Source: a bacterium (GTDB lineage: Bacteria; SZUA-182; DTGQ01; JAFGSM01). Taken from it: 64,000 bases of DNA. The stretch covers positions 1,000-64,999 of the forward strand of contig JAFGSM010000080.1 in assembly GCA_016934595.1 (NCBI GenBank), written 5' to 3'. Made by a program: the position numbers and the translations under genes. Each line of letters starts with the position of its first letter. Position 1 is the first letter of the stretch. Of this stretch, positions 3,807 through 59,035 are shown piece by piece. The notes under the pieces were generated by a model. It saw only the letters and a list, made by a program, of their open reading frames with translations. It did no database searches and was not told the DNA's origin.

Positions 3807-5870
3807 ATGATTTATATCCAGAACATCAAAAAACATTTCGGGCACAAAACCATATTCGATAGCGCTTCAGCCCATATACCCCCTAAGACTAGAGTTGGCC
3901 TGGTGGGACCCAATGGCTCTGGGAAAACTACGCTCCTTCGGATCTTAACCGGTGAAGAGGAACTGGATGGCGGCGGTATCTTTATAAATAAAGGAGCCCG
4001 GGCCGGTTATCTCAAACAGGAGGTATGGGATAATCCAGACCGCGGCATTTTGGCAGAGACGCTGTCGGGTTTTCCTGATCTTCAAAAGATTGAACAGGGC
4101 CTGATAGAACTGGAACGGCAGATGGAGGGCAAATTTCTGCCTGACACCCTTGAAAAATATGGAGAGTTGCGTCATCTTTTTGAGATACAAGGCGGTTACG
4201 ATATAGAACATCAGGCCAAGTCATTGCTTTGCGGCATGGGTTTCCGTCCGGAGCAATTCGCTCAGCCCCTGCACCAGTTCTCAGGCGGTTGGATGATGCG
4301 CGTCTGTCTCGCTAAATTACTATTGGCCAAGCCCGATGTGCTTTTGCTGGATGAGCCAACGAACCATCTTGACCTGGAGACTATATTATGGCTTGAAAAT
4401 TTTTTGCTTGAATATCCTGGCACCATCGTGTTCACAACACACGACCAGGTATTTATGCAGAATGTGGCAGGGCGTATTCTGGAAATCAGCCGGTGCAAGT
4501 TGTTTACATTTATAGGAAGCTTCGAGGAATATGTGGAGGAAAAGGCTTCCAGGCAGGAACAGATCGAGGCCCAGTATAAAAACCAGCAGAAAAAGGTCGA
4601 ACAGCAGGAGCGTTTTATTGAGCGCTTCCGGTACAAGGCCACCAAGGCAAAGCAGGTGCAAAGCCGTATCAAAATGCTTCAGAAAAAGGAACGGGTGGAT
4701 ATGATAGAAGACACCCCGCGTGCGATGAAGATTCGCCTGCCCCAACCACCCCGGTCAGGTCAAAAGGTGGTGCATGTCTCAAATGTTACAAAAAAATACG
4801 GCGAGAAGACGGTCTATGAAGGGCTAAACCTTATCATCGAACGGGGTGAGAAGGCGGTGCTGGTTGGGCCGAACGGTGCAGGCAAATCTACACTCCTCAA
4901 GATTATAGCCGGAGTAATAGACATCCAGGCTGGAACCGTATCTTATGGCCACCAGGTCACAATGGATTACTACGCCCAGCATCAGCTCGAAACCCTGAAT
5001 CCGGATTTCAGCATACTGGAGGAATTGACGGCTGTGACACAGGACTTCACTCTTGAGAAACGCCGAAAACTATTAGGGGCATTCCTGTTCTCAGGCGAAG
5101 ATGTTTTTAAGCGCATCTCCATTTTGTCCGGCGGCGAAAAGGCACGAATCGCCCTGGTTAAAATGCTATGCCGGCCAATGAATTTCCTGGTCATGGATGA
5201 GCCTACCAATCACCTGGATATCCTTTCTCGTCAGGTACTTGAGGATGCGCTGTCAGACTATGATGGAACACTTGTTTTTATCTCCCATGACAGGGCATTT
5301 ATCAATTCCTTCGCAAACCGTGTTATCGAGATCAGGGATGGCAAACTGCACAGCTATCCAGGAAATTACGATGACTATGAATGGAAAAAAGCCCAGGAAA
5401 AACCACAAACACCTCTTGATCAAAAAATAAAAAACCGGCTGTCACCCGAATGCGTGGCCCCGGATATTCACGGCTCAAATTCTAATGAAAAGCCCATGAA
5501 TCTTAGATTCACAAAGGGGAATGAAAATATACAGAAGGGATTTTCAGATAAAAAAATCCCGGGCAAAAAAGACGGGCGTCGCGTGCGAGCCGAAAGGATA
5601 CAGGAAAAATCCAGGCGTCTAAAACCGCTTAAGGAGAAACTGGCTATTCTGGAAAAAGATATAGCAGCCCTGGAAGCAGAAAAAGAGGTAATCTCATCGG
5701 CAATATGCGACCCTAATATCATAAGCGATACTTCAGTCTATCCGCAAAAACTCAAAAGACACCGTGTCCTTGAGACAAGACTCCAAATATATTATGACGA
5801 ATGGGCAGAAACTTCCCAGCAGATAGAGGAAACCCTTTCAGAGTTTTCAGAGTTACAACCGGGTGATTAA
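3807..5870 (+). CDS. ABC-F family ATPase (EttA/Uup/YheS-like, two ABC domains) with an extended C-terminal tail
   Basis: Two Walker A motifs ([18 protein letters not shown]), two ABC signature motifs ([19 protein letters not shown]) and no TMDs. The C-terminal roughly 150 aa is a coiled-coil tail that contains an in-frame copy of the dispersed repeat (aa ...[23 protein letters not shown]...). Confidence 0.85.
5496..5560 (+). repeat. One unit of the dispersed structured repeat family, inserted in-frame in the ABC-F tail
   Basis: ATGAATCTTAGATTCACAAAGGGGAATGAAAATATACAGAAGGGATTTTCAGATAAAAAAAT matches the units at 58878, 14803 and 8911. It contains two palindromes: TGAATCTtAGATTCA and GAAAATatacagaagggATTTTC. 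Confidence 0.7.
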
Positions 5871-8910: not shown

Positions 8911-8990
8911 TCAATGAAACACTCATGCCTAAATTCGACACAAAGGAGAATGAAAATCCAAAACTATTTTCAGGTGAAAATCAGCGCAGA
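8911..8990 (+). repeat. One unit of the dispersed structured repeat family (intergenic)
   Basis: AATGAAACACTCATGCCTAAATTCGACACAAAGGAGAATGAAAATCCAAAACTATTTTCAGGTGAAAA is nearly identical to one unit (rc) inside the ydbH-like gene at about 14880-14935. It is open-reading-frame-like (MPKFDTKENENPKLFSGENQRRKIEIPK*). Confidence 0.7.
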
Positions 8991-9173
8991 AAAATAGAAA
9001 TCCCGAAGTGATAACTTCGAGGAGTAAAGGTTGATATTTTAGGCTTGTTTATCTATAATTACACGCGTTAATTATCTGCTAAGATTCCTATTTAAACAGG
9101 GAGTTTCATGAAGGATGTTCGGGTGGAATTAAAGCTTAACTTAAATGACATTGGATTGCGAATTCATACGACT

Positions 9174-9246
9174 GCGCCCGTAGCTCAGGGGACAGAGCGC
9201 AGCGCTCCGGACGCTGAAGCCGAAGGTTCAAGTCCTTCCGGGCGCA
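9174..9246 (+). tRNA. tRNA-Arg (anticodon CCG)
   Basis: Hand-folded cloverleaf. Acceptor GCGCCCG/CGGGCGC, D-stem GCTC/GAGC with a G18G19 loop, anticodon stem CAGCG/CGCTG, loop CTCCGGA (U33, CCG, G37), T-stem GAAGG/CCTTC and T-loop TTCAAGT, discriminator A. No encoded CCA. The six-frame ORF 9108..9302 is an artefact over this tRNA. Confidence 0.85.
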
Positions 9247-9269
9247 TAATTATTTCCTTAATTAACAAT

Positions 9270-9391
9270 GATGGCCTCGTAAAAAGTCTAAAATGCCCTT
9301 AAAAATAAGTTTAATATTATAATTTTGATACATGTTTTGTCGATATAATCTTAGTTTTTCATCATTAAAAATACTTTTTACGAGGCCATCA
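9270..9391. mobile_element. MITE-like element: 18-bp perfect terminal inverted repeats (GATGGCCTCGTAAAAAGT / ACTTTTTACGAGGCCATC) flanked by a 6-bp direct repeat AACAAT
   Basis: Read directly: left TIR 9270-9287 is preceded by AACAAT (9264-9269); right TIR 9374-9391 is followed by AACAAT (9392-9397). The interior is AT-rich and non-coding. It lies 24 bp downstream of tRNA-Arg. Degenerate solo TIR-like copies occur at about 3697-3716 and 13683-13700. Confidence 0.6.
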
Positions 9392-9424: not shown

Positions 9425-11080
9425 ATGAAATTTAAGGGGGGAAATATGCATAAAAGATATCTATATAATAATAAACGCCCATGTCACCTTATATCGCCAC
9501 AAATAATGAGAATAAACAACGAGATTTATTTTAGGAACAAATATCCATGGCACTTTGGAGCCGCCACGAATCATGAAAATCGAACCTATTTTCGAGACAA
9601 ACGCTCATGCCGCTTCGCTGCGCCACGAATCATGAAAATAAACAACGATGTTTATTTTCGAGACAACAAGAATAAAAACCCTTTGTCCTCGATGTGCCTT
9701 TCTGTAATGATTGTAATGATGATGATAATATTGCCTTGTCTCATTTCTGGCCATGCTATAGCAGACGAAAACAGTGCATTCCCGTTCTATCCATCTTTAA
9801 TCATTCCGGCAGCAGACGGGGGAATAGGTCTGGATGCCTTTAAGGCCGCTATGTCCTGCAGAGGATGTCACCTTTCTACCTTCAAGGAATGGGAGGGATC
9901 AACACACTCCCTTGCCTTTAAAGACCCTGTATTTCTTTCGATGTGCAGATTAGGTTCCAAAGCAACAAACGGACAAACGGACAAATTGTGTCTTGGATGC
10001 CATACACCCATAGGGCTTATTACATCCGATATAACAACCCCTGATGATGAAACTAAGGCAAATCAAATCTCCAAAGATGGCGTTCAGTGCGATTTTTGCC
10101 ATGTCGTAAGCAATACGACCTATAACAAAGCCAAGACCGCTTCCCCCCAGAATGCGTCATTCCTTGTCCAGCCAGGGGAAATTAAATGGGGGCCGATAGA
10201 CAATTGTGAATCCACATTCCACAAATCGGAATTTTCCGAGCTTCATACCAGTTCCAAGTTTTGTGGCAACTGCCACAATATCTTCTTGACAGGCCAGGAT
10301 ATCAAGATTGTAAAGACCTACGACGAATGGGAAAAATCCGTTTACGCCCAGAAAGGTATAGAGTGCCAGGACTGCCATATGATGCCTGTTGAATTGGCAA
10401 AAATAGCGGCAGACAAACTGGAAAAACCTAAAAATTCCGGTAAGGCCGCATCCGTTGCGCCCTTGAGAGAAAATATACATGTGCACAGGTTTGTCGGCGG
10501 AGGATTCGATCTGGAAAAAGGCCCACGCGTAACTAATCAGCAGAAAGAGACGGAAAAAAGGCTAAAAAGCGCGGCAAGACTGGATATCGATGTTAAGCCC
10601 TCCCCTTCCTCAAAAGGCAGCCTGGTCTTAACGGTAACCGTACACAATGAAAGGGCGGGCCATAATCTGCCTACAGGGATCCCTGGCATAAGGCAGTTAT
10701 GGCTTGAGGTAATCATCTCAGACAAAGGCTCAAAAGAGGTGTTTCGTTCAGGCGGCCTGGATAAAGACGGAAATATCCAAAAAGACGCAAAGCGCCTTGG
10801 TGTTGCAGCCGTTGACAAATCAGGCGACCCTGTATATAAACCCTGGGAAATTGCGGCATTAAAGACAGATACAACCATCCCTCCGAAGGGAAAAGGGGGG
10901 TTCAAATTCGACGTAAGCCTTCCCGATGACATTGCGTGGCCGATGACTGCGAAAGCCATTCTTCACTACAGGGCATTCAGTCCATCATTGCTTAAGGATC
11001 TTTTGCCGGATGCCCCTCGTGAGATACCTGTCTTTGACATGGCAACATCAGAGATCGCCATACAAGGCCCTGTTCTCTGA
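9425..11080 (+). CDS. Multiheme c-type cytochrome (five CxxCH motifs), secreted
   Basis: CRGCH, CLGCH, CDFCH, CGNCH and CQDCH are present. A signal-peptide-like segment MCLSVMIVMMMIILPCLISGHAIA sits at about aa 90, which suggests the real start is near 9692. The first roughly 270 nt of the listed ORF are the tandem repeat units. Confidence 0.8.
   Translation: MKFKGGNMHKRYLYNNKRPCHLISPQIMRINNEIYFRNKYPWHFGAATNHENRTYFRDKRSCRFAAPRIMKINNDVYFRDNKNKNPLSSMCLSVMIVMMMIILPCLISGHAIADENSAFPFYPSLIIPAADGGIGLDAFKAAMSCRGCHLSTFKEWEGSTHSLAFKDPVFLSMCRLGSKATNGQTDKLCLGCHTPIGLITSDITTPDDETKANQISKDGVQCDFCHVVSNTTYNKAKTASPQNASFLVQPGEIKWGPIDNCESTFHKSEFSELHTSSKFCGNCHNIFLTGQDIKIVKTYDEWEKSVYAQKGIECQDCHMMPVELAKIAADKLEKPKNSGKAASVAPLRENIHVHRFVGGGFDLEKGPRVTNQQKETEKRLKSAARLDIDVKPSPSSKGSLVLTVTVHNERAGHNLPTGIPGIRQLWLEVIISDKGSKEVFRSGGLDKDGNIQKDAKRLGVAAVDKSGDPVYKPWEIAALKTDTTIPPKGKGGFKFDVSLPDDIAWPMTAKAILHYRAFSPSLLKDLLPDAPREIPVFDMATSEIAIQGPVL
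9473..9664 (+). repeat. Three tandem units (66, 60 and 66 bp) of the dispersed structured repeat family, immediately upstream of or inside the 5' end of the multiheme cytochrome ORF
   Basis: The three units are at 9473-9538, 9539-9598 and 9599-9664. Each contains CCACgAAtcATGAgAAT-loop-ATTTTcGAG-type hairpins (for example GAAAATAAACAacgaTGTTTATTTTC, an 11-bp perfect stem). All three are in-frame with the cytochrome ORF (…RFAAPRIMKINNDVYFRD…). Confidence 0.7.
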
Positions 11081-11086
11081 TGTATT

Positions 11087-11698
11087 TTAATCTTCCTCGT
11101 CTTCTTCGTTCAGGTCATTAAATATCTTTACCCAAAAATTCTGGATCCCCGTTAGATAGGCATCCATTCCCAGATCCACGGTAAATGCCTGAGGGTTATA
11201 ATAGACATTATAAGGATTTCCGGCATTCATATAACTGGTGGTTGTGGGAGGATAACCCCAAAACCCTGTGGCAGTGTTCATTTGGTTATTCCATGCACCC
11301 TGATCGACATAGGCATAAGGTATAGGATATCCGAATGTATCCACATCACGCCACCCATATCCGTTATAGTTGCCTGTATTATAAGAACCCAAAAAGTTCT
11401 GATTATAGCCTGCATTTACATTATAGGCCCCATTATATATGTTAAATCTGGTGTTATACGGATAATATACCCCCATAGCAGGCCCTAACATATATGGATC
11501 CGAAAATGCCTGATAACTGTTGTAATTCATATAATTGGATGGATTGCCCCAACCAATATTCATATTAGCAGTCCATGTGGGGATGTTATAATAGCCGTAA
11601 TAAGCCGATGCCTGGCCGGTCACACCCGCAGAAAATAAAACTATTATTGCAATAATAAAGATATGATACGATTTCATGTTTTTTGTGATGCCTTTCAT
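11087..11698 (-). CDS. Secreted Tyr/Asn/Gly-rich low-complexity (prion-like/amyloid-like) protein with an acidic C-terminal tail
   Basis: The N-terminal signal peptide is MKSYHIFIIAIIVLFSAGVTGQASA. The mature part is about 15% Tyr and 17% Asn with repeated YN/GY/NxY motifs, and ends in NEEDEED. It is convergent with the cytochrome gene with only a 6-bp gap. Confidence 0.5.
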   Translation of the reverse strand: MKGITKNMKSYHIFIIAIIVLFSAGVTGQASAYYGYYNIPTWTANMNIGWGNPSNYMNYNSYQAFSDPYMLGPAMGVYYPYNTRFNIYNGAYNVNAGYNQNFLGSYNTGNYNGYGWRDVDTFGYPIPYAYVDQGAWNNQMNTATGFWGYPPTTTSYMNAGNPYNVYYNPQAFTVDLGMDAYLTGIQNFWVKIFNDLNEEDEED

Positions 11699-11878
11699 TT
11701 TACTCCTCCAAATATTATTGTTATTGGCTAAAATCTCGATTTATAAGACGATAGAAAATAGAAAAAATTACTGCACCAGAATAAAAACCCAAGTAGATCG
11801 TTCAGTTATATCGATGCAATACATTTTGTTCGATCGATTCATTAACCTGGTATTTCCAATGCTATCTATCGGCAATGT

Positions 11879-11958
11879 GTAACTGCTCAATATCCTGTGG
11901 AAATAGTAACTCATTGCCATTTAGAAGCCTGATTGCCCATAACATATTGAGCAGTTAC
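11879..11958. mobile_element. MITE-like element: 15-bp perfect TIRs (GTAACTGCTCAATAT / ATATTGAGCAGTTAC) flanked by an 8-bp direct repeat GGCAATGT
   Basis: Read directly: GGCAATGT occurs at 11871-11878 and 11959-11966. The TIRs are at 11879-11893 and 11944-11958, enclosing a 50-bp non-coding core. It sits in the divergent intergenic region between the Y/N-rich protein gene and the MBL-fold gene. Confidence 0.6.
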
Positions 11959-12029
11959 GGCAATGTTATTTCATGAACGATCTGCTTGGGTTTGAAAATA
12001 TATCTCATTTCTGCTAATTACATATTATT

Positions 12030-13040
12030 ATGACACCTTGCTTTCACCCCAGGCTGGTCAATGGCCCTTTCCATGACCCTGCCTTATATATAGATTTCCT
12101 CTATCAAAACAGGGCCATCCTTTTTGATATAGGAGACATATCGGCGCTGACGACAAAACATATCCATAAAATCACGGATGTCTTTGTCACGCATACCCAC
12201 ATGGATCATTTCATAGGATTGGACTATCTGATAAGGCTATTTCTTGGCAGGGACAAGCGGCTTTCCATATACGGCCCCCCAAGGATAATCGATAATGTGG
12301 CAGGAAAGCTCTCGGCCTATACATGGAATCTGGTTGACAATTTTGAAAACAGTTTCGAGATCCATGTCTTTGAATCGCACACAGATCACATAGAAAAGGC
12401 GATTCTGAAATGCCATAACCTCTTCCAAAAGGAGATGTGCCTTGAAAAAGCGCCTTTCAAAGACAAACTCCTGGACGAAGATGAATTTAGCATCCATACG
12501 GCCTTTCTTGATCATTTTACACCATGCCTGACATTCTGTCTGAAAGAGAAGTCCCATATAAATATCAAAAAGGACGTATTGGACACACTTGGCCTGCCTT
12601 CCGGCCCGTGGCTAAACCAGTTGAAAACAGCGATAAGGCAGCAGGAGCCGGATAATTATCCGATAACGATCAAGGCCAAGAGTTCGGATGATTCTCAGGG
12701 GCAGAAGACTACCCTGGGCTGGGTCAAACAAAAAGGCCTTTTCACAATTTCACAGGGGCAAAAGATAGCCTATGTTACAGATATAGGGTACACACAGGAA
12801 AATATATCCAGGTTAACCTCTTTTGCAATGGATGCGGACTATCTGTTTTGCGAGGCCGCATTCCTTGAAGAAGACAGCCAATTAGCGAAAAAGAAATGCC
12901 ATCTTACAGCGCATCAGGCAGGGCTGATAGCCAGACAGGCAAATGCAAGGAAACTTATCCCTTTCCATTTTTCCCCAAGATATCAGGGCAGGGAAGACCT
13001 TATTTACAAAGAGGCTGAAAGGTCCTTTACTTCTTCATAA
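12030..13040 (+). CDS. MBL-fold metallo-hydrolase (RNase Z/ElaC-like)
   Basis: Contains the HxHxDH motif (VTHTHMDHFIGLDYL) and downstream His/Asp ligands (DHF..., H at TAHQAG) typical of the metallo-beta-lactamase superfamily. Confidence 0.65.
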   Translation: MTPCFHPRLVNGPFHDPALYIDFLYQNRAILFDIGDISALTTKHIHKITDVFVTHTHMDHFIGLDYLIRLFLGRDKRLSIYGPPRIIDNVAGKLSAYTWNLVDNFENSFEIHVFESHTDHIEKAILKCHNLFQKEMCLEKAPFKDKLLDEDEFSIHTAFLDHFTPCLTFCLKEKSHINIKKDVLDTLGLPSGPWLNQLKTAIRQQEPDNYPITIKAKSSDDSQGQKTTLGWVKQKGLFTISQGQKIAYVTDIGYTQENISRLTSFAMDADYLFCEAAFLEEDSQLAKKKCHLTAHQAGLIARQANARKLIPFHFSPRYQGREDLIYKEAERSFTSS

Positions 13041-13635: not shown

Positions 13636-13740
13636 CTTCCAATCCCCCTTTCGATTTTTGAATCCATTATCTCTTCATTGATCGCCTCGTAAAAAGCCGA
13701 TATTACCCTTCCTGTCATTGTGAAATGAATAGACCTCCTG

Positions 13741-15192
13741 CTAATTGACCTTTACTGCCGTACCCCTGTCCTCGAAAATCCTGTTGATCCTTTCCCTCAT
13801 ATCCTTAAAGCTTATTATGTTATCAGGGTTCTGATTGACCATATCGATCCCGCGGAAAAGCCCTTTTCTTATAATAAACTCCTGGCCGTCCTCCTGAATA
13901 AGCCCCCTCAGTGAAAAGATATCGTTTCTTAGCTCGCACCTGAACCCTATTTTTGAGTATGGATAATAGGAAAAAAATCTGTTTAATCCGGAATTAAGAA
14001 CACTCTGAACACCGGAAGACCCTGTGCCGATCATGGAGAGGTTATTAATGGCATCCACGCTGATCTTCTGCCTTACCCCTTTCTGTTTAACCGATTCCAC
14101 CTCCATCAAAAACCTTGCAGGCTGACCATATTCTATCACAAAATCGGTCAACTTTCCTTTGATAACACCGCTGATCTTGCCGATGGGAACCCTTTCTGTC
14201 AGCTTATCAAGCCCTATGCCATCCCAAAAGATAGACCCGCCCAGCCTTCTCCCCTGGCTGAAGGGCATCTCAAGATAAATATCCTTGATATCTAAACCTC
14301 CTCCGAATATTTCAGCATAAAGCGAGCCTGTAAAATCGATCCTGTCATTCTTATATGTCAGATGAGGTATATCTCCATCCAATCGCCCGGATACAGGAAA
14401 ACCTGATCCCTTTGAAATCGTCATCAGATCCAATGCCTTAATGCCTATGGATGCCTGGAAAACAGCGTTTTTGGAGATTATCTCCGCGCCGCTCAGCTCC
14501 CTCAAAAAGACTTCCCCACCGAAGATATTTATATAGACAGGGTCCTTTATCTGGAAACGGTTTTGAGAAAACATGGGATGCAGCTCCAAGTCATCATAAA
14601 ATCCATTTAGCCAGGAAACCTTCTTGATACGGATGACCCCTGAACGTCCATCTGTGAATGGCCCCTGTTCACAGAATGAAGACGCTGCAAGTTCTAAAGG
14701 CAATTCTATAGTCAGTCCAGAGATGGAGATTTCACAGGCAGGTATATCTATTGATGGAAAAGATGCCTTCCATTCGCCGCTAAGCCTCCAACCGCCACTT
14801 TCATCTGAAAATCCCTTCTGGGTATTTTCATTCCCCATTGTGAATCTAAAATTCATGGGCGTTTCACCTGAAAATAGTTTTGGATTTTCATTCTCCTTTG
14901 TGCCGAATTTAGGCATGAGTGTTTCATCTATCATCGCCCTTAGTTTAAAAACAGAGCATCCCGATATATTAATCCCCTGTAAAGCAGGCGGTCCCTGTTC
15001 ATTGCCTTCCGCGATGATAAAACCGAGGAGAGCGGAATGGTTGATGCCAGACGTCTTTGTCTCTAAATCAAGAGACAATCCCTTTTGATCCATTTTTATC
15101 TGAAACCGCAGGCCCCCGATCTCTAAAATATCCAGAACCCCTTTAGACTCTAAACGCTGAAAGTTTGCAAAAAAAAACCGCTTAAATCCCAC
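13741..15192 (-). CDS. YdbH/AsmA-family protein, C-terminal fragment (same gene as 15150..16550 after a +1T correction)
   Basis: Inserting one T in the T9 run (plus-strand A9 at about 15170-15178) joins ...WDLSGFF to FANFQRLESKG... in one frame, giving about 940 aa, comparable to E. coli YdbH. It contains two in-frame repeat units (...MPKFGTKENENPKLFSGETPMNFRFTMGNENTQKGFSDE...). Confidence 0.6.
   Translation of the reverse strand: MGFKRFFFANFQRLESKGVLDILEIGGLRFQIKMDQKGLSLDLETKTSGINHSALLGFIIAEGNEQGPPALQGINISGCSVFKLRAMIDETLMPKFGTKENENPKLFSGETPMNFRFTMGNENTQKGFSDESGGWRLSGEWKASFPSIDIPACEISISGLTIELPLELAASSFCEQGPFTDGRSGVIRIKKVSWLNGFYDDLELHPMFSQNRFQIKDPVYINIFGGEVFLRELSGAEIISKNAVFQASIGIKALDLMTISKGSGFPVSGRLDGDIPHLTYKNDRIDFTGSLYAEIFGGGLDIKDIYLEMPFSQGRRLGGSIFWDGIGLDKLTERVPIGKISGVIKGKLTDFVIEYGQPARFLMEVESVKQKGVRQKISVDAINNLSMIGTGSSGVQSVLNSGLNRFFSYYPYSKIGFRCELRNDIFSLRGLIQEDGQEFIIRKGLFRGIDMVNQNPDNIISFKDMRERINRIFEDRGTAVKVN
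14803..14935 (-). repeat. Two tandem units of the dispersed structured repeat family, in-frame inside the ydbH-like gene
   Basis: The reverse complement reads ...TGAAACACTCATGCCTAAATTCGGCACAAAGGAGAATGAAAATCCAAAACTATTTTCAGGTGAAACGCCCATGAATTTTAGATTCACAATGGGGAATGAAAATACCCAGAAGGGATTTTCAGATGAAA... One unit is nearly identical to the intergenic copy at 8911-8990. Confidence 0.7.
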
Positions 15193-24127: not shown

Positions 24128-25101
24128 GGTTTAGCCTCCCAGCAGCTTACAAGATGGCCCGGCCCGATCTCAACAAGCCTTGGCATATCTGTAATGCAAC
24201 GCTGCCTTGCCCGCTCGCATCTTGATGCAAAAGGGCACCCTATAGGCATGTCAAAGAGGTCGGGAACCGTGCCTTTGATCGTCTTCAGCCTGCCGCCCGC
24301 GATTTTCCTGTCATCAAGCCTCGGCAATGAATCAAGAAGCGCGATGGTATAAGGATGTAACGGGCCGTGAAAAAGATCCCTTACCCCCGCCTCTTCAACC
24401 ACATACCCTGCATACATAACCGAGACCTTCTGAGCAGTTTCCGCAACCACGCCGAGGTCATGAGTAACCATGAGAACAGACATACCCAAGCTGTTTTTCA
24501 GGCTGTCTATAAGCTCAAGTATCTGGGCCTGTATAGTAACATCCAGTGCCGAAGTGGGTTCATCTGCGATCAAGAGATCAGGCTGGCATGAAAGGGCCAT
24601 GGCTATCATCACCCTTTGCCTCATACCCCCGCTCATCTGATGGGGATAATCCTTGATCCTTTTTGAAGGATCTGGAATGCCAACCATGTCTAAGATCTCG
24701 ACAGACCTTTGGACCGCCTTTTTGTGGTCAACCCTTTGATGCAGGCGGATAGCTTCGGCTATCTGTTCTCCGACAGTGAAGACCGGATTCAAAGATGTCA
24801 TAGGTTCCTGAAAGATCATGGATGTTTCGTTTCCCCTGATATCGCGCATCTCATCCGGATCGAGACCGAGCAGGTCCCTGCCGTTAAAAGTGATCCTGCC
24901 TGACATAATCCTGCCCGGCGGGTTTGGGACAAGCCTCATGATTGAAAGGGAAAGCACTGTTTTACCGCATCCGGACTCTCCAACCAAACCCAGCGTTTCG
25001 CCTTTTTTTATCTTAAGGTCAACCCCGTTCACAGCCTTTACAACCCCGTCAGAGGTAAAGAAAAAGGTGTGCAGGTCTTCGACAGCAAGCAGGTACTTCA
25101 T
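24124..25101 (-). CDS. Oligopeptide/dipeptide ABC transporter ATP-binding protein (OppD/DppD-like)
   Basis: Walker [10 protein letters not shown], signature [12 protein letters not shown], Walker [13 protein letters not shown], and the C-terminal [14 protein letters not shown] motif. Confidence 0.85.
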
Positions 25102-25161
25102 CTGAAAATCCCTTTCATGTGTTTTTCATCCCTGTTTGCAGATAGAAAATTAATAAGGGTC

Positions 25162-26769
25162 TCATCTCACCCATACACTGTCCAGAAAAAGATCGCCAAG
25201 AGAATTCGTGAAATCGCCTTTGACCCAGCTTCTGGCTGCCCATATCCTGTGAGGATAACAAAGATAAATGGCCACCACTGCCTTATCGATCACGGGGGAC
25301 AGGATGCTGAATGACATATCCCTGACATTGGGATCACACTCCTTGAGAGCCGATGAAAGGTCTTCTTCCCATGTATATGTAGATGCCCCCAGCTTGTTCT
25401 CTAAAGATGAATGGTGATAAAGCCGCCATGTGAATTGATCCGCCCCTCCACCTCCCCTCCAGTCCTCCCAGTCCTCGAGCGCCGCCTGAAAAAAAGCCCT
25501 GTCTTTCCCGCCCCGTCCATACACAAAGTCAAAAAGCTCATTTTTAGACATGGGAAATAAGTCCACAAGGACATTGATATGTGAGAGTTGTTCCTTGATG
25601 ATTTGGGCAATTGCACGGAAAGGCTCATCATCCGTATACATAAGGGAAAAAGAAACCTGCAAATCTGAGGTAAAACCCTCATCCGCAAGCAACTTTAACG
25701 CAAGATTCGGGTCAAAAAACTGCCCGCCGGCGCCTGCGTCATAAAGCCTGTGCCACTGAGGGAGACAAGACAGCGCAGGGGTTGCAAAACCGTCAAATGC
25801 CTTCTTTGCTATCTCCTCCCTGTTTATGCCCAATGAAATGGCCTTCCTGATGTTTGGCCTGTCAAATGGGGACCGGTCTGCATTGAGGTATATCTGGCAT
25901 ATTCTCTGTCCAGGCTTATGAACAAGCCGGATGTATGATCTTGAGGCAAGCCCGGATGCCTCGTTTGTGGAAAGATTTGCAGCGATATCTATCCTTCTTC
26001 GTCTGAGGTCTTGAACCACATCGCTGCCAGGCTCTGGAAAATGGAATATTATCCTGTGGAGAAAGGGATTGTTGGCCTTGTCTGTCTTATATGAATAGTT
26101 TCTTTCAAGGATTACATCCTTTCCCCTTTCCCATTCAATAAATCTGAAAGGGCCTGTGCCAACGGCTGCAACCTTGCCGTAAGAAGACCCATACCGGGTC
26201 ACAGCCTTAATGGAAAGGGGGCGCATCTCATGCCTGGCAAGCAATTCCAAAAGATCAGGGCAATCATGACCTAAAGTGATCTTTATCTGCATCGGAGCAA
26301 TTACCTCAACAGAGTTAATGCCTTGAAATATTTGTCGTGAAGGGCATTGAGTGGCCGGATCAAGCAGCCTCTTTATGGTAAATACAACGTCATTGGCATC
26401 AAGCGGCTTCCCATCATGAAACTTTATATCATGCTTAATCTCGAGTATATATTCATGATCGCTTATTCTCACAGGCATGGATGCTGCAAGCACTGGAACT
26501 ATTCTGTCGTTTTGGTCGTACTCAAGGAGGCCGTCATAAATTTGTTCTATTAACCATTTATCGGACAGGGTTTCCGCCTTTTGAGGGTCTAGTGTATAAA
26601 CATGATCAGGACATGCTAGGACAAGCGCGCCCCCCTCGTGTATTTTGACTTTGTGCGGCTCTTGATGGGTTTTCTCTGGGTAGACAGATAATCCAGCGCC
26701 TATCGTAAGGGAAAATATTACAGATGCTAAAAATACCGTCCTCAAACTAAAAACAAACGGATTCCTCAT
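25162..26769 (-). CDS. ABC transporter substrate-binding protein, family 5 (peptide/nickel/opine type)
   Basis: A signal peptide plus about 510 aa with the SBP_bac_5 pattern (…YTLDPQKA…, …GTGPFRF…). It is followed directly by the two ATPase genes, but no permease genes are adjacent. Confidence 0.75.
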   Translation of the reverse strand: MRNPFVFSLRTVFLASVIFSLTIGAGLSVYPEKTHQEPHKVKIHEGGALVLACPDHVYTLDPQKAETLSDKWLIEQIYDGLLEYDQNDRIVPVLAASMPVRISDHEYILEIKHDIKFHDGKPLDANDVVFTIKRLLDPATQCPSRQIFQGINSVEVIAPMQIKITLGHDCPDLLELLARHEMRPLSIKAVTRYGSSYGKVAAVGTGPFRFIEWERGKDVILERNYSYKTDKANNPFLHRIIFHFPEPGSDVVQDLRRRRIDIAANLSTNEASGLASRSYIRLVHKPGQRICQIYLNADRSPFDRPNIRKAISLGINREEIAKKAFDGFATPALSCLPQWHRLYDAGAGGQFFDPNLALKLLADEGFTSDLQVSFSLMYTDDEPFRAIAQIIKEQLSHINVLVDLFPMSKNELFDFVYGRGGKDRAFFQAALEDWEDWRGGGGADQFTWRLYHHSSLENKLGASTYTWEEDLSSALKECDPNVRDMSFSILSPVIDKAVVAIYLCYPHRIWAARSWVKGDFTNSLGDLFLDSVWVR

Positions 26770-27210: not shown

Positions 27211-28019
27211 GAAACCTTGATCTTTTCCGTGAAAGGGCTTTCTGGAAACTCCCGGCAGAGGTATGCCTGAACGCCCCTCGCCTCGTCTAACATGCCCTCC
27301 ATCATGTATGTCTGGGAAAGCAGATAAAGGGTCTCATCCCTCCACGGGACTTCAGGATAAAGCGACCATATCTTCTGAAGCCTGCCTCTTGCCGCCTTGT
27401 ACGAGCCGGTCTTCAGGTAAAACCTGGCCACATAGAGGTCATGCTCAGAAAGCCTCAAACGGCATTTGGATACACTATCCTTTGCCTCTTCTGTCATCTG
27501 GCTCTGCGGATATTCCTTGAGGAATCTCTCGAATGATTCCAGAGCCTTGATCGTATAAGTCTGATCCCGATCCGGCCCCAATATTTGCTTAAAAAATGTC
27601 TGCCCTATCCTGAACCTAGCCATGTCAGCCTTTGAATGGAGGGGGTGAAGATTAAGGAATCTCTCGTATTCCGCCCTTGCAGAATCAAATTCTTTGAGTT
27701 GAAAATAACAATCGGCCCTGTTCAGTCTGGTCTTGGCCATCAAAGGGCTCTCAGGATACTCCTCTGTCAGCCTGCCAAAGACCTCCTCCGCCTTCCGGAA
27801 TTTGTCCTTGCCCAGATAATCCATGGCCTGATTATATAGCTCCTGATCCGTAAGCACTCTTGCCTTTTTGCTGCAAGAAGGCAAGGCTGGGGACATGATG
27901 ACAAGGAGGCAGATAACCCATAGAGAAAATATGGTACGTCCTTTTTTATTTTCAATAAATATTTTCGTCTGAAAATCGTTTATGATTTTCATCCTCCTTT
28001 GTGCCAATTTTATTGGCAT
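27186..28019 (-). CDS. bamD: Outer-membrane protein assembly factor BamD-like TPR lipoprotein
   Basis: Lipobox ALPSC after a signal peptide, then TPR repeats with BamD-like motifs (YNQAMDYLGKDKFRKAEEVF..., ...YVARFYLKTGSYKAARGRLQ...). The true start is probably an internal Met. Confidence 0.65.
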   Translation of the reverse strand: MPIKLAQRRMKIINDFQTKIFIENKKGRTIFSLWVICLLVIMSPALPSCSKKARVLTDQELYNQAMDYLGKDKFRKAEEVFGRLTEEYPESPLMAKTRLNRADCYFQLKEFDSARAEYERFLNLHPLHSKADMARFRIGQTFFKQILGPDRDQTYTIKALESFERFLKEYPQSQMTEEAKDSVSKCRLRLSEHDLYVARFYLKTGSYKAARGRLQKIWSLYPEVPWRDETLYLLSQTYMMEGMLDEARGVQAYLCREFPESPFTEKIKVSCKDIEPE

Positions 28020-58877: not shown

Positions 58878-59035
58878 AAATGAAACACCCATGAATCTAC
58901 GATTCACAAAAAAGGATGAAAATACCCAAAGGGGATTTTCAGGTGAAAAAATAAAATGAAACACACATAAATCTCTCGCCTCACAAAGAAGTGTGCGAAT
59001 ACCCAAACAGGGATTTTCATGTGAAAAAATAAAAA
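58878..59035 (+). repeat. Two tandem units of the dispersed structured repeat family (intergenic, upstream of an epimerase gene)
   Basis: Unit 1 is AAATGAAACACCCATGAATCTACGATTCACAAAAAAGGATGAAAATACCCAAAGGGGATTTTCAGGTGAAAAAATA. Unit 2 is AAATGAAACACACATAAATCTCTCGCCTCACAAAGAAGTGTGCGAATACCCAAACAGGGATTTTCATGTGAAAAAATA. Unit 1 is itself a mini-ORF: MNLRFTKKDENTQRGFSGEKIK*. Confidence 0.7.

Follow-up and report, generated by a model that had tools for sequence, protein, structure and literature searches.

A putative non-autonomous transposon with IS66-family ISBst12-group-type ends in the intergenic region of a divergent gene pair

An 80-bp element in the 64-kb stretch of DNA analysed here (the window) is most likely, with a probability of roughly 85%, a non-autonomous transposon (MITE) whose ends match in type those of single-ORF elements in the ISBst12 group (IS66 family). 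A first-pass annotation of the same DNA had already called it a MITE, and that call is supported by a family of elements with the same ends and 8-bp flanks, by the absence of the element at orthologous sites and by ends that belong to a known group of insertion sequences (IS).

Anatomy of the element

The first-pass annotation had described an 80-bp element with perfect 15-bp TIRs and an 8-bp TSD at 11871-11966, and both the coordinates and the sequence proved correct (Table 1). The TIRs are identical at all 15 positions and continue imperfectly to 22 nt, at 86%. The 12-nt end GTAACTGCTCAA is the presumed recognition site of the transposase. Between the TIRs, the core is a degenerate palindrome, and the only ORFs overlapping the 80 bp are short mechanical ones (50 and 68 aa). 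Counting the final C of the right TIR gives an alternative reading of the direct repeat as 9 nt (CGGCAATGT); the 8-bp reading is the one that agrees with the rest of the family. The perfect TIRs and the perfect duplication suggest that the insertion is fairly recent.

Table 1. Coordinates of the MITE, its enclosing repeat and the two flanking genes in the window
Feature	Position	Strand	Remarks
Left 8-bp target-site duplication GGCAATGT	11871-11878		8/8 identical to 11959-11966; directly abuts the TIR
MITE	11879-11958		80 bp, 39% G+C; too short for a transposase; aligns end to end with 12 others of 76-92 bp
Left TIR GTAACTGCTCAATAT	11879-11893	+	GTAACTGCTCAA, the first 12 nt, defines the family
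Right TIR ATATTGAGCAGTTAC	11944-11958	-	Exact reverse complement of the left TIR
Right 8-bp target-site duplication GGCAATGT	11959-11966		8/8 identical to 11871-11878
Tyr/Asn-rich (Y/N-rich) protein gene	11087-11698	-	Signal-peptide-like N-terminus; no Pfam match
MBL-fold hydrolase gene (Lactamase_B_2)	12030-13040	+	GenBank protein MBN2372979.1, annotated as ribonuclease Z
Outer 20-nt inverted repeat AAACCCAAGTAGATCGTTCA, left arm	11785-11804	+	Encloses the MITE and is not part of it; absent in orthologous intergenic regions
Outer inverted repeat, right arm (1 mismatch)	11974-11993	-	Ends at GTTTGAAAA, the conserved promoter-like sequence of the MBL gene

We estimate that a perfect 15-nt inverted pair within ~100 nt should arise about 0.006 times per 64 kb; requiring an 8/8 direct repeat that abuts the pair multiplies this by a further ~1.5 × 10−5. 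The octamer GGCAATGT is not rare by itself (three matches against 2.55 expected), and it is its placement, not its rarity, that carries the weight. For a perfect 15-nt inverted pair with the same octamer abutting both sides, chance is excluded.

Exact matches to the 15-mer GTAACTGCTCAATAT in the 64 kb are limited to the two TIR sites. Neither this search nor an nhmmer search with a profile of the family, degenerate copies included, detected a second copy of the MITE in the window. The profile matched the window copy with an E-value of 2.8 × 10−10, the window copy itself being among the 13 sequences from which the profile was made. The left junction of the MITE was recovered in Logan contig L002 and the right junction in contig L001, both from run SRR13394437, which may be the source dataset of the metagenome-assembled genome (MAG), and this junction evidence is perhaps not fully independent. 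Contig L001 starts and contig L002 ends inside the hairpin loop of the MITE (window ~11899-11903), with an overlap of just 5 nt. We rejected these breaks as a sign of repetitiveness, as the contigs are only 2-3 kb long, the assembly is fragmented and the break falls in the middle of the element, not at its borders. They probably reflect a drop in coverage in a fragmented assembly and are uninformative on copy number.

The window holds further repeats. A separate dispersed family of ~50-130 bp is present in at least seven copies in both orientations (8914-8979, 14799-14927, 5486-5553, 58881-58948, 2066-2119, 25097-25164 and 27963-28012); positions 8914-8979 and 14862-14927, for example, are 98% complementary over 66 nt. 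Because the 5' portion of the long ORF 13741-15192 contains one of these copies, the start of this ORF may be over-called. Just downstream of tRNA-Arg(CCG) (9173-9247) is a perfect 19-nt inverted repeat, TGATGGCCTCGTAAAAAGT (9269-9287 and 9373-9391), presumably the tRNA-adjacent MITE of the first-pass annotation. Because a related stretch of 35 nt, 80% identical, occurs at 13676-13710, the sequence next to tRNA-Arg is repeated as well. Three imperfect direct repeats of ~60-67 nt each, with CGCCACGAATCATGAAAAT-like and AATAAACAACGA..TTTATT hairpin motifs, occupy 9473-9666, a stretch that the ORF list assigns to the cytochrome gene as its ~80 initial codons. Since the cytochrome orthologue at locus L016 is 82 aa shorter, the true cytochrome start probably lies downstream of this segment, which would then be non-coding repeat DNA.

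Same-ended elements and the parent transposase group

We scanned a collection of species-representative genomes, as well as metagenomes, for the pattern GTAACTGCTCAA-N40-70-TTGAGCAGTTAC. The genome collection yielded four loci, two in OW818666.1 (a 4.9-Mb metagenome-assembled chromosome) and two in a Spirochaetota MAG, and the metagenomes yielded seven, three of which came from sample Ga0055513. One of the OW818666.1 copies has a further, degenerate copy with one decayed end 3.7 kb away. Together, the family outside the window amounts to 12 elements of 76-92 bp from other genomes and metagenomes. Copy numbers were three in the sampled parts of OW818666.1, two in the Spirochaetota MAG and three in metagenome Ga0055513; one copy was seen in the 64 kb of the window. 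The interiors differ widely and are mostly G+C-rich, near-perfect hairpins. With 23 of 40 ungapped interior positions palindromic and 39% G+C, the window copy is much less palindromic and more A+T-rich than most of its relatives, and it resembles a subgroup of the family with the ends GTAACTGCTCAAAAACCGGTGG.

Flanking octamers agree at all eight positions in four copies (the window copy, L007, L009 and L010), at seven in L004, L006a and L012, and at six in L005 and L008. When a shift of 1 nt is allowed, L003 reaches 7/8 and L006b 8/8. This comparison leaves out L011 and L013, two copies at contig ends. There, the sequences on the two sides of the MITE are exact reverse complements of each other up to the end of the contig (73/73 nt in L013, 2128-2349, and 6/6 nt in L011, 1225-1328); the hairpin element has seeded fold-back artefacts in the assembly. 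As the family was picked by its 12-nt ends, the conservation of the ends within it is circular; the flanking 8-bp repeats and the comparison with IS are independent of that selection. Because the flanks match at six to eight of eight positions in the informative copies, the GTAACTGCTCAA-ended elements are, judging from these repeats, a family of mobile elements that duplicates 8 bp of its target.

To our knowledge, only the IS66 family pairs ends that start with GTAA with an 8-bp duplication. Its canonical inverted repeat is GTAAGCGTCCGGCGAACTCACCTT in ISPsk01, and canonical ends read GTAAGCGTCCGG... (PMC12888890). One copy of an IS66/ISBst12 element was assigned by ISsaga to the Geobacillus plasmid pHTA426 (PMC8024623). 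The sole annotated IS66-family transposase of pHTA426 belongs to a 1635-bp single-ORF element with the ends GTATCTATTCAGCCC / GTAACTATTCAGCCC and a perfect 8-bp flanking repeat, GACGAGTT, and the protein matches Pfam DDE_Tnp_IS66 and zf-IS66 as well as NCBIfam NF033517. RefSeq names this transposase 'IS66-like element ISGka4 family' (NC_006509.1, our locus L137, 14107-15741). The Geobacillus paper puts ISGka4 in the ISLre2 family and gives a separate IS66/ISBst12 copy for pHTA426 (PMC8024623), a conflict in naming that could mislead annotation transfer.

Relatives of the pHTA426 transposase were taken from plasmids, viral contigs and metagenome/ENA assemblies, which provided 15 elements with clear ends (30 ends). 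The consensus of these ends is GTAACTATTCAG, with G1, T2, A3, C10 and A11 invariant, and the recovered single-ORF elements of the ISBst12 group end in GTAAYTRYTCAR. In all 15, the 8-bp flanking repeats read as perfect, in four of them only with boundaries set by hand and not from the top-ranked pair of the script. Every base of GTAACTGCTCAA was observed at its position among the ends of these IS. The closest ends match it at 11 of 12 positions and are of two kinds: GTAATTGCTCAAC, found in Pseudanabaena and in a very abundant subgroup, and GTAACTGCTCAGG (or GTAACTGCTCAGCG), found in L162 and on a Deinococcus plasmid. Four 1509-bp copies of the GTAATTGCTCAAC subgroup are dispersed in a single assembly, and their perfect 8-bp repeats all differ.

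A MITE mobilised by another family that duplicates 8 bp, namely IS256, ISL3, IS1595, IS6 or canonical three-ORF IS66, is improbable when these ends are compared. Canonical IS66 ends share the GTAA start with the MITE and match it at only 6/12 by our count, whereas individual ISBst12-group ends match at 7-11/12, including all invariant positions. Because of this difference, the ends of the MITE family, together with its duplication length, appear to be those of the ISBst12 group of IS66. As far as is known, IS256, ISL3, IS6 and IS1595 have ends that start with GG or G(A/G) in place of GTAA. The duplication length by itself would leave room for other parents, as 8-bp direct repeats are not unique to one family and are tabulated for both IS6 and IS66 (PMC3281130), and the exact autonomous partner was not found. 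The first-pass annotation had proposed looking for an IS with the same ends and an 8-bp TSD. Such a search gave a near match in the ISBst12 group, at up to 11/12, but no identical ends, and by end match this group is the best candidate instead of the example parents named at the time (IS256, ISL3 and IS1595).

The search for the partner covered several kinds of sequence. Neither the window nor the MITE-bearing loci contained an autonomous IS ending exactly in GTAACTGCTCAA; the only extra ends at these loci were those of one degenerate MITE, and tblastn gave no significant match to an IS66-family transposase in the window or in 16 related loci. A 15-mer scan of viral contigs returned at least 120 single, chance-like matches and no credible pair of the size of an IS; more specific scans of these contigs returned nothing. 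On plasmids, BLAST searches with one MITE and with ten concatenated MITEs found only chance G+C-rich matches or nothing. Past position 12, the similarity between the MITE and the IS was not convincing.

We propose that a DDE transposase, probably of the ISBst12 group and either encoded elsewhere in the genome or formerly present, would bind both ends of the MITE and join them to target DNA cleaved with a stagger of 8 bp. Repair of the gaps would then leave the flanking duplication of GGCAATGT, and the MITE would be mobilised in trans through its TIRs, as is any DDE-type MITE. A further-reaching reading, which we regard as unlikely, is that the GTAACTGCTCAA-ended elements form an undescribed MITE family that spans several phyla and is mobilised by single-ORF IS66 (ISBst12-group) transposases, having kept ~12-15 nt of each IS end around unrelated interiors that are mostly G+C-rich, near-perfect hairpins. 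If true, this would suggest that such elements arose independently several times, or else that the hairpin itself is under selection, perhaps serving as a mobile terminator or structural module.

Orthologous loci and neighbouring genes

The MITE is located within the 331-bp spacer between two divergent genes, in agreement with the setting given by the first-pass annotation, and the surrounding genes, for a multihaem cytochrome, tRNA-Arg, a glycosyltransferase and a DUF1318 protein, are of ordinary chromosomal kinds. This divergent intergenic position, the strong palindrome and the presence of GGCAAT/ATTGCC four times in 96 bp would all fit an operator or other regulatory palindrome at which a dimeric regulator controls the pair of genes for a Y/N-rich secreted protein and an MBL-fold hydrolase. 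The loci of three relatives of the MBL protein (80%, 68% and 67% identity) were compared with the window. Locus L016 is syntenic, with the cytochrome, the Y/N-rich protein (50% identity) and then the MBL gene (67% identity); L015 keeps the divergent gene pair, and L014 is also an orthologous locus. Upstream of the MBL gene, the MITE is absent from all three, including the syntenic L016, where other short motifs are kept. Because of this absence, the MITE is not a conserved operator. Conservation in orthologous regions, which had been named beforehand, together with uniqueness in the genome, as speaking against a MITE, is clearly not found. The same ends, moreover, occur at unrelated loci in unrelated genomes, each time with an 8-bp flanking repeat of their own, and the internal ATTGCC motifs align with the CTCCGCC core of the family. 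An operator is very improbable on these grounds and is largely refuted already.

The empty-site form of the locus would read ...CTATC-GGCAATGT-TATTTCATG..., and a search of metagenomes for this allele with TCTATCGGCAATGTTATTTCATG gave no match. Two blocks of the intergenic region are conserved. At the start of the MBL gene is a promoter-like block consisting of GTTTGAAAA, ~16 nt, GnTAAT and 8-11 nt to the ATG (window 11990-12032; also in L014 and L016), and the spacing from GnTAAT to ATG suggests that the mRNA of this gene is leaderless or nearly so. The second conserved motif, AAGACG...GAAAAAyATTACT (window 11745-11773), lies nearer to the Y/N-rich gene. The gap between the two blocks measures 28-43 nt in L016 and L014 versus 216 nt in the window, where the extra DNA consists of the MITE with one copy of the duplication (88 bp) and the 121 bp around them, delimited by the outer 20-nt inverted repeat.

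Together, the outer inverted repeat and the MITE account for the ~175-190 bp by which the intergenic region exceeds that of the orthologues. In its place, the orthologues have just a 5-6-bp hairpin, immediately upstream of the -35-like hexamer of the MBL gene. The outer repeat has no clear target duplication, and searches outside the window found only three single, chance-like matches on viral contigs, none with a partner arm. The outer repeat may have arisen from another palindromic insertion, older than the MITE, or by expansion of a local hairpin. On the further-reaching, unlikely reading given above, the position of the MITE inside this lineage-specific 20-nt inverted repeat could point to a preference for palindromic target DNA.

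As for the neighbouring genes, the MITE lies ~33 bp upstream of the predicted MBL -35 hexamer and more than 100 bp from the likely promoter or conserved motif of the other gene. A consensus scan found no promoter-like or terminator-like sites inside the MITE, and for both flanking genes the conserved sequence near the promoter is outside it; the analysis yielded no evidence for the earlier suggestion that the element may supply promoter or operator sequence. A sigma-54 promoter reading of GGCAAT...TGC was rejected on inspection, as the GG-to-GC spacing is wrong. Because both promoter core regions are intact, the insertion is probably neutral, a tolerated passenger rather than a functional part of the region. 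A structured RNA gene, transcription terminator or attenuator is hardly credible, since the good RNA fold of the 96-nt stretch (z = −4.1) is simply the pairing of the TIRs, no Rfam family matched at the gathering threshold (with only noise at E-values up to 10), and the interiors are wholly different between family members whose ends and flanking duplications are kept.

Comparison with known systems

In the literature search, no published description of a MITE family derived from IS66/ISBst12 was found, which is weak evidence of novelty, and a search for the MITE end sequence returned only primers and barcodes. If ISBst12-group MITEs are truly undescribed, they would be a modest addition to IS catalogues. 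The MITE itself is an ordinary feature that matters little beyond annotation. Its presence indicates past exposure to transposition of the IS66/ISBst12 type in an uncultured bacterium that is known from a MAG alone. The combination of GTAACTGCTCAA...TTGAGCAGTTAC with an 8-bp duplication can serve as a signature for masking or annotating similar elements in metagenomes, where hairpin elements of this family lead to fold-back artefacts at contig ends, as in L011 and L013.

Classical bacterial MITEs such as Correia/NEMIS, RUP, Chunjie and Nezha are likewise short, non-coding and intergenic, with TIRs and a duplication of fixed length; they occur in several copies per genome, and the transposase of an IS is supplied in trans. 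They differ from the MITE described here in their ends, in the length of their duplications (TA for Correia and RUP) and in their parent IS families. With canonical three-ORF IS66 elements (tnpA-tnpB-tnpC, such as ISPsk01), the MITE shares the GTAA start (PMC12888890) and the 8-bp duplication (PMC3281130). The canonical ends continue as GTAAGCG versus GTAACTG in the MITE, and canonical elements have three ORFs versus one in the ISBst12 group. Single-ORF elements of the ISBst12 group (~1.4-1.7 kb, for example the pHTA426 element and ISAva2) have in common with the MITE the GTAA start, the GTAAYTRYTCAR pattern, TIRs of ~13-15 nt and the 8-bp target duplication, and the MITE end matches theirs at up to 11 of 12 positions. 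The MITE differs from them in having no transposase gene and in its length of 80 bp versus ~1.5 kb. At position 12, the MITE family has A and most of the IS have G; among the IS, only the GTAATTGCTCAAC subgroup has A.
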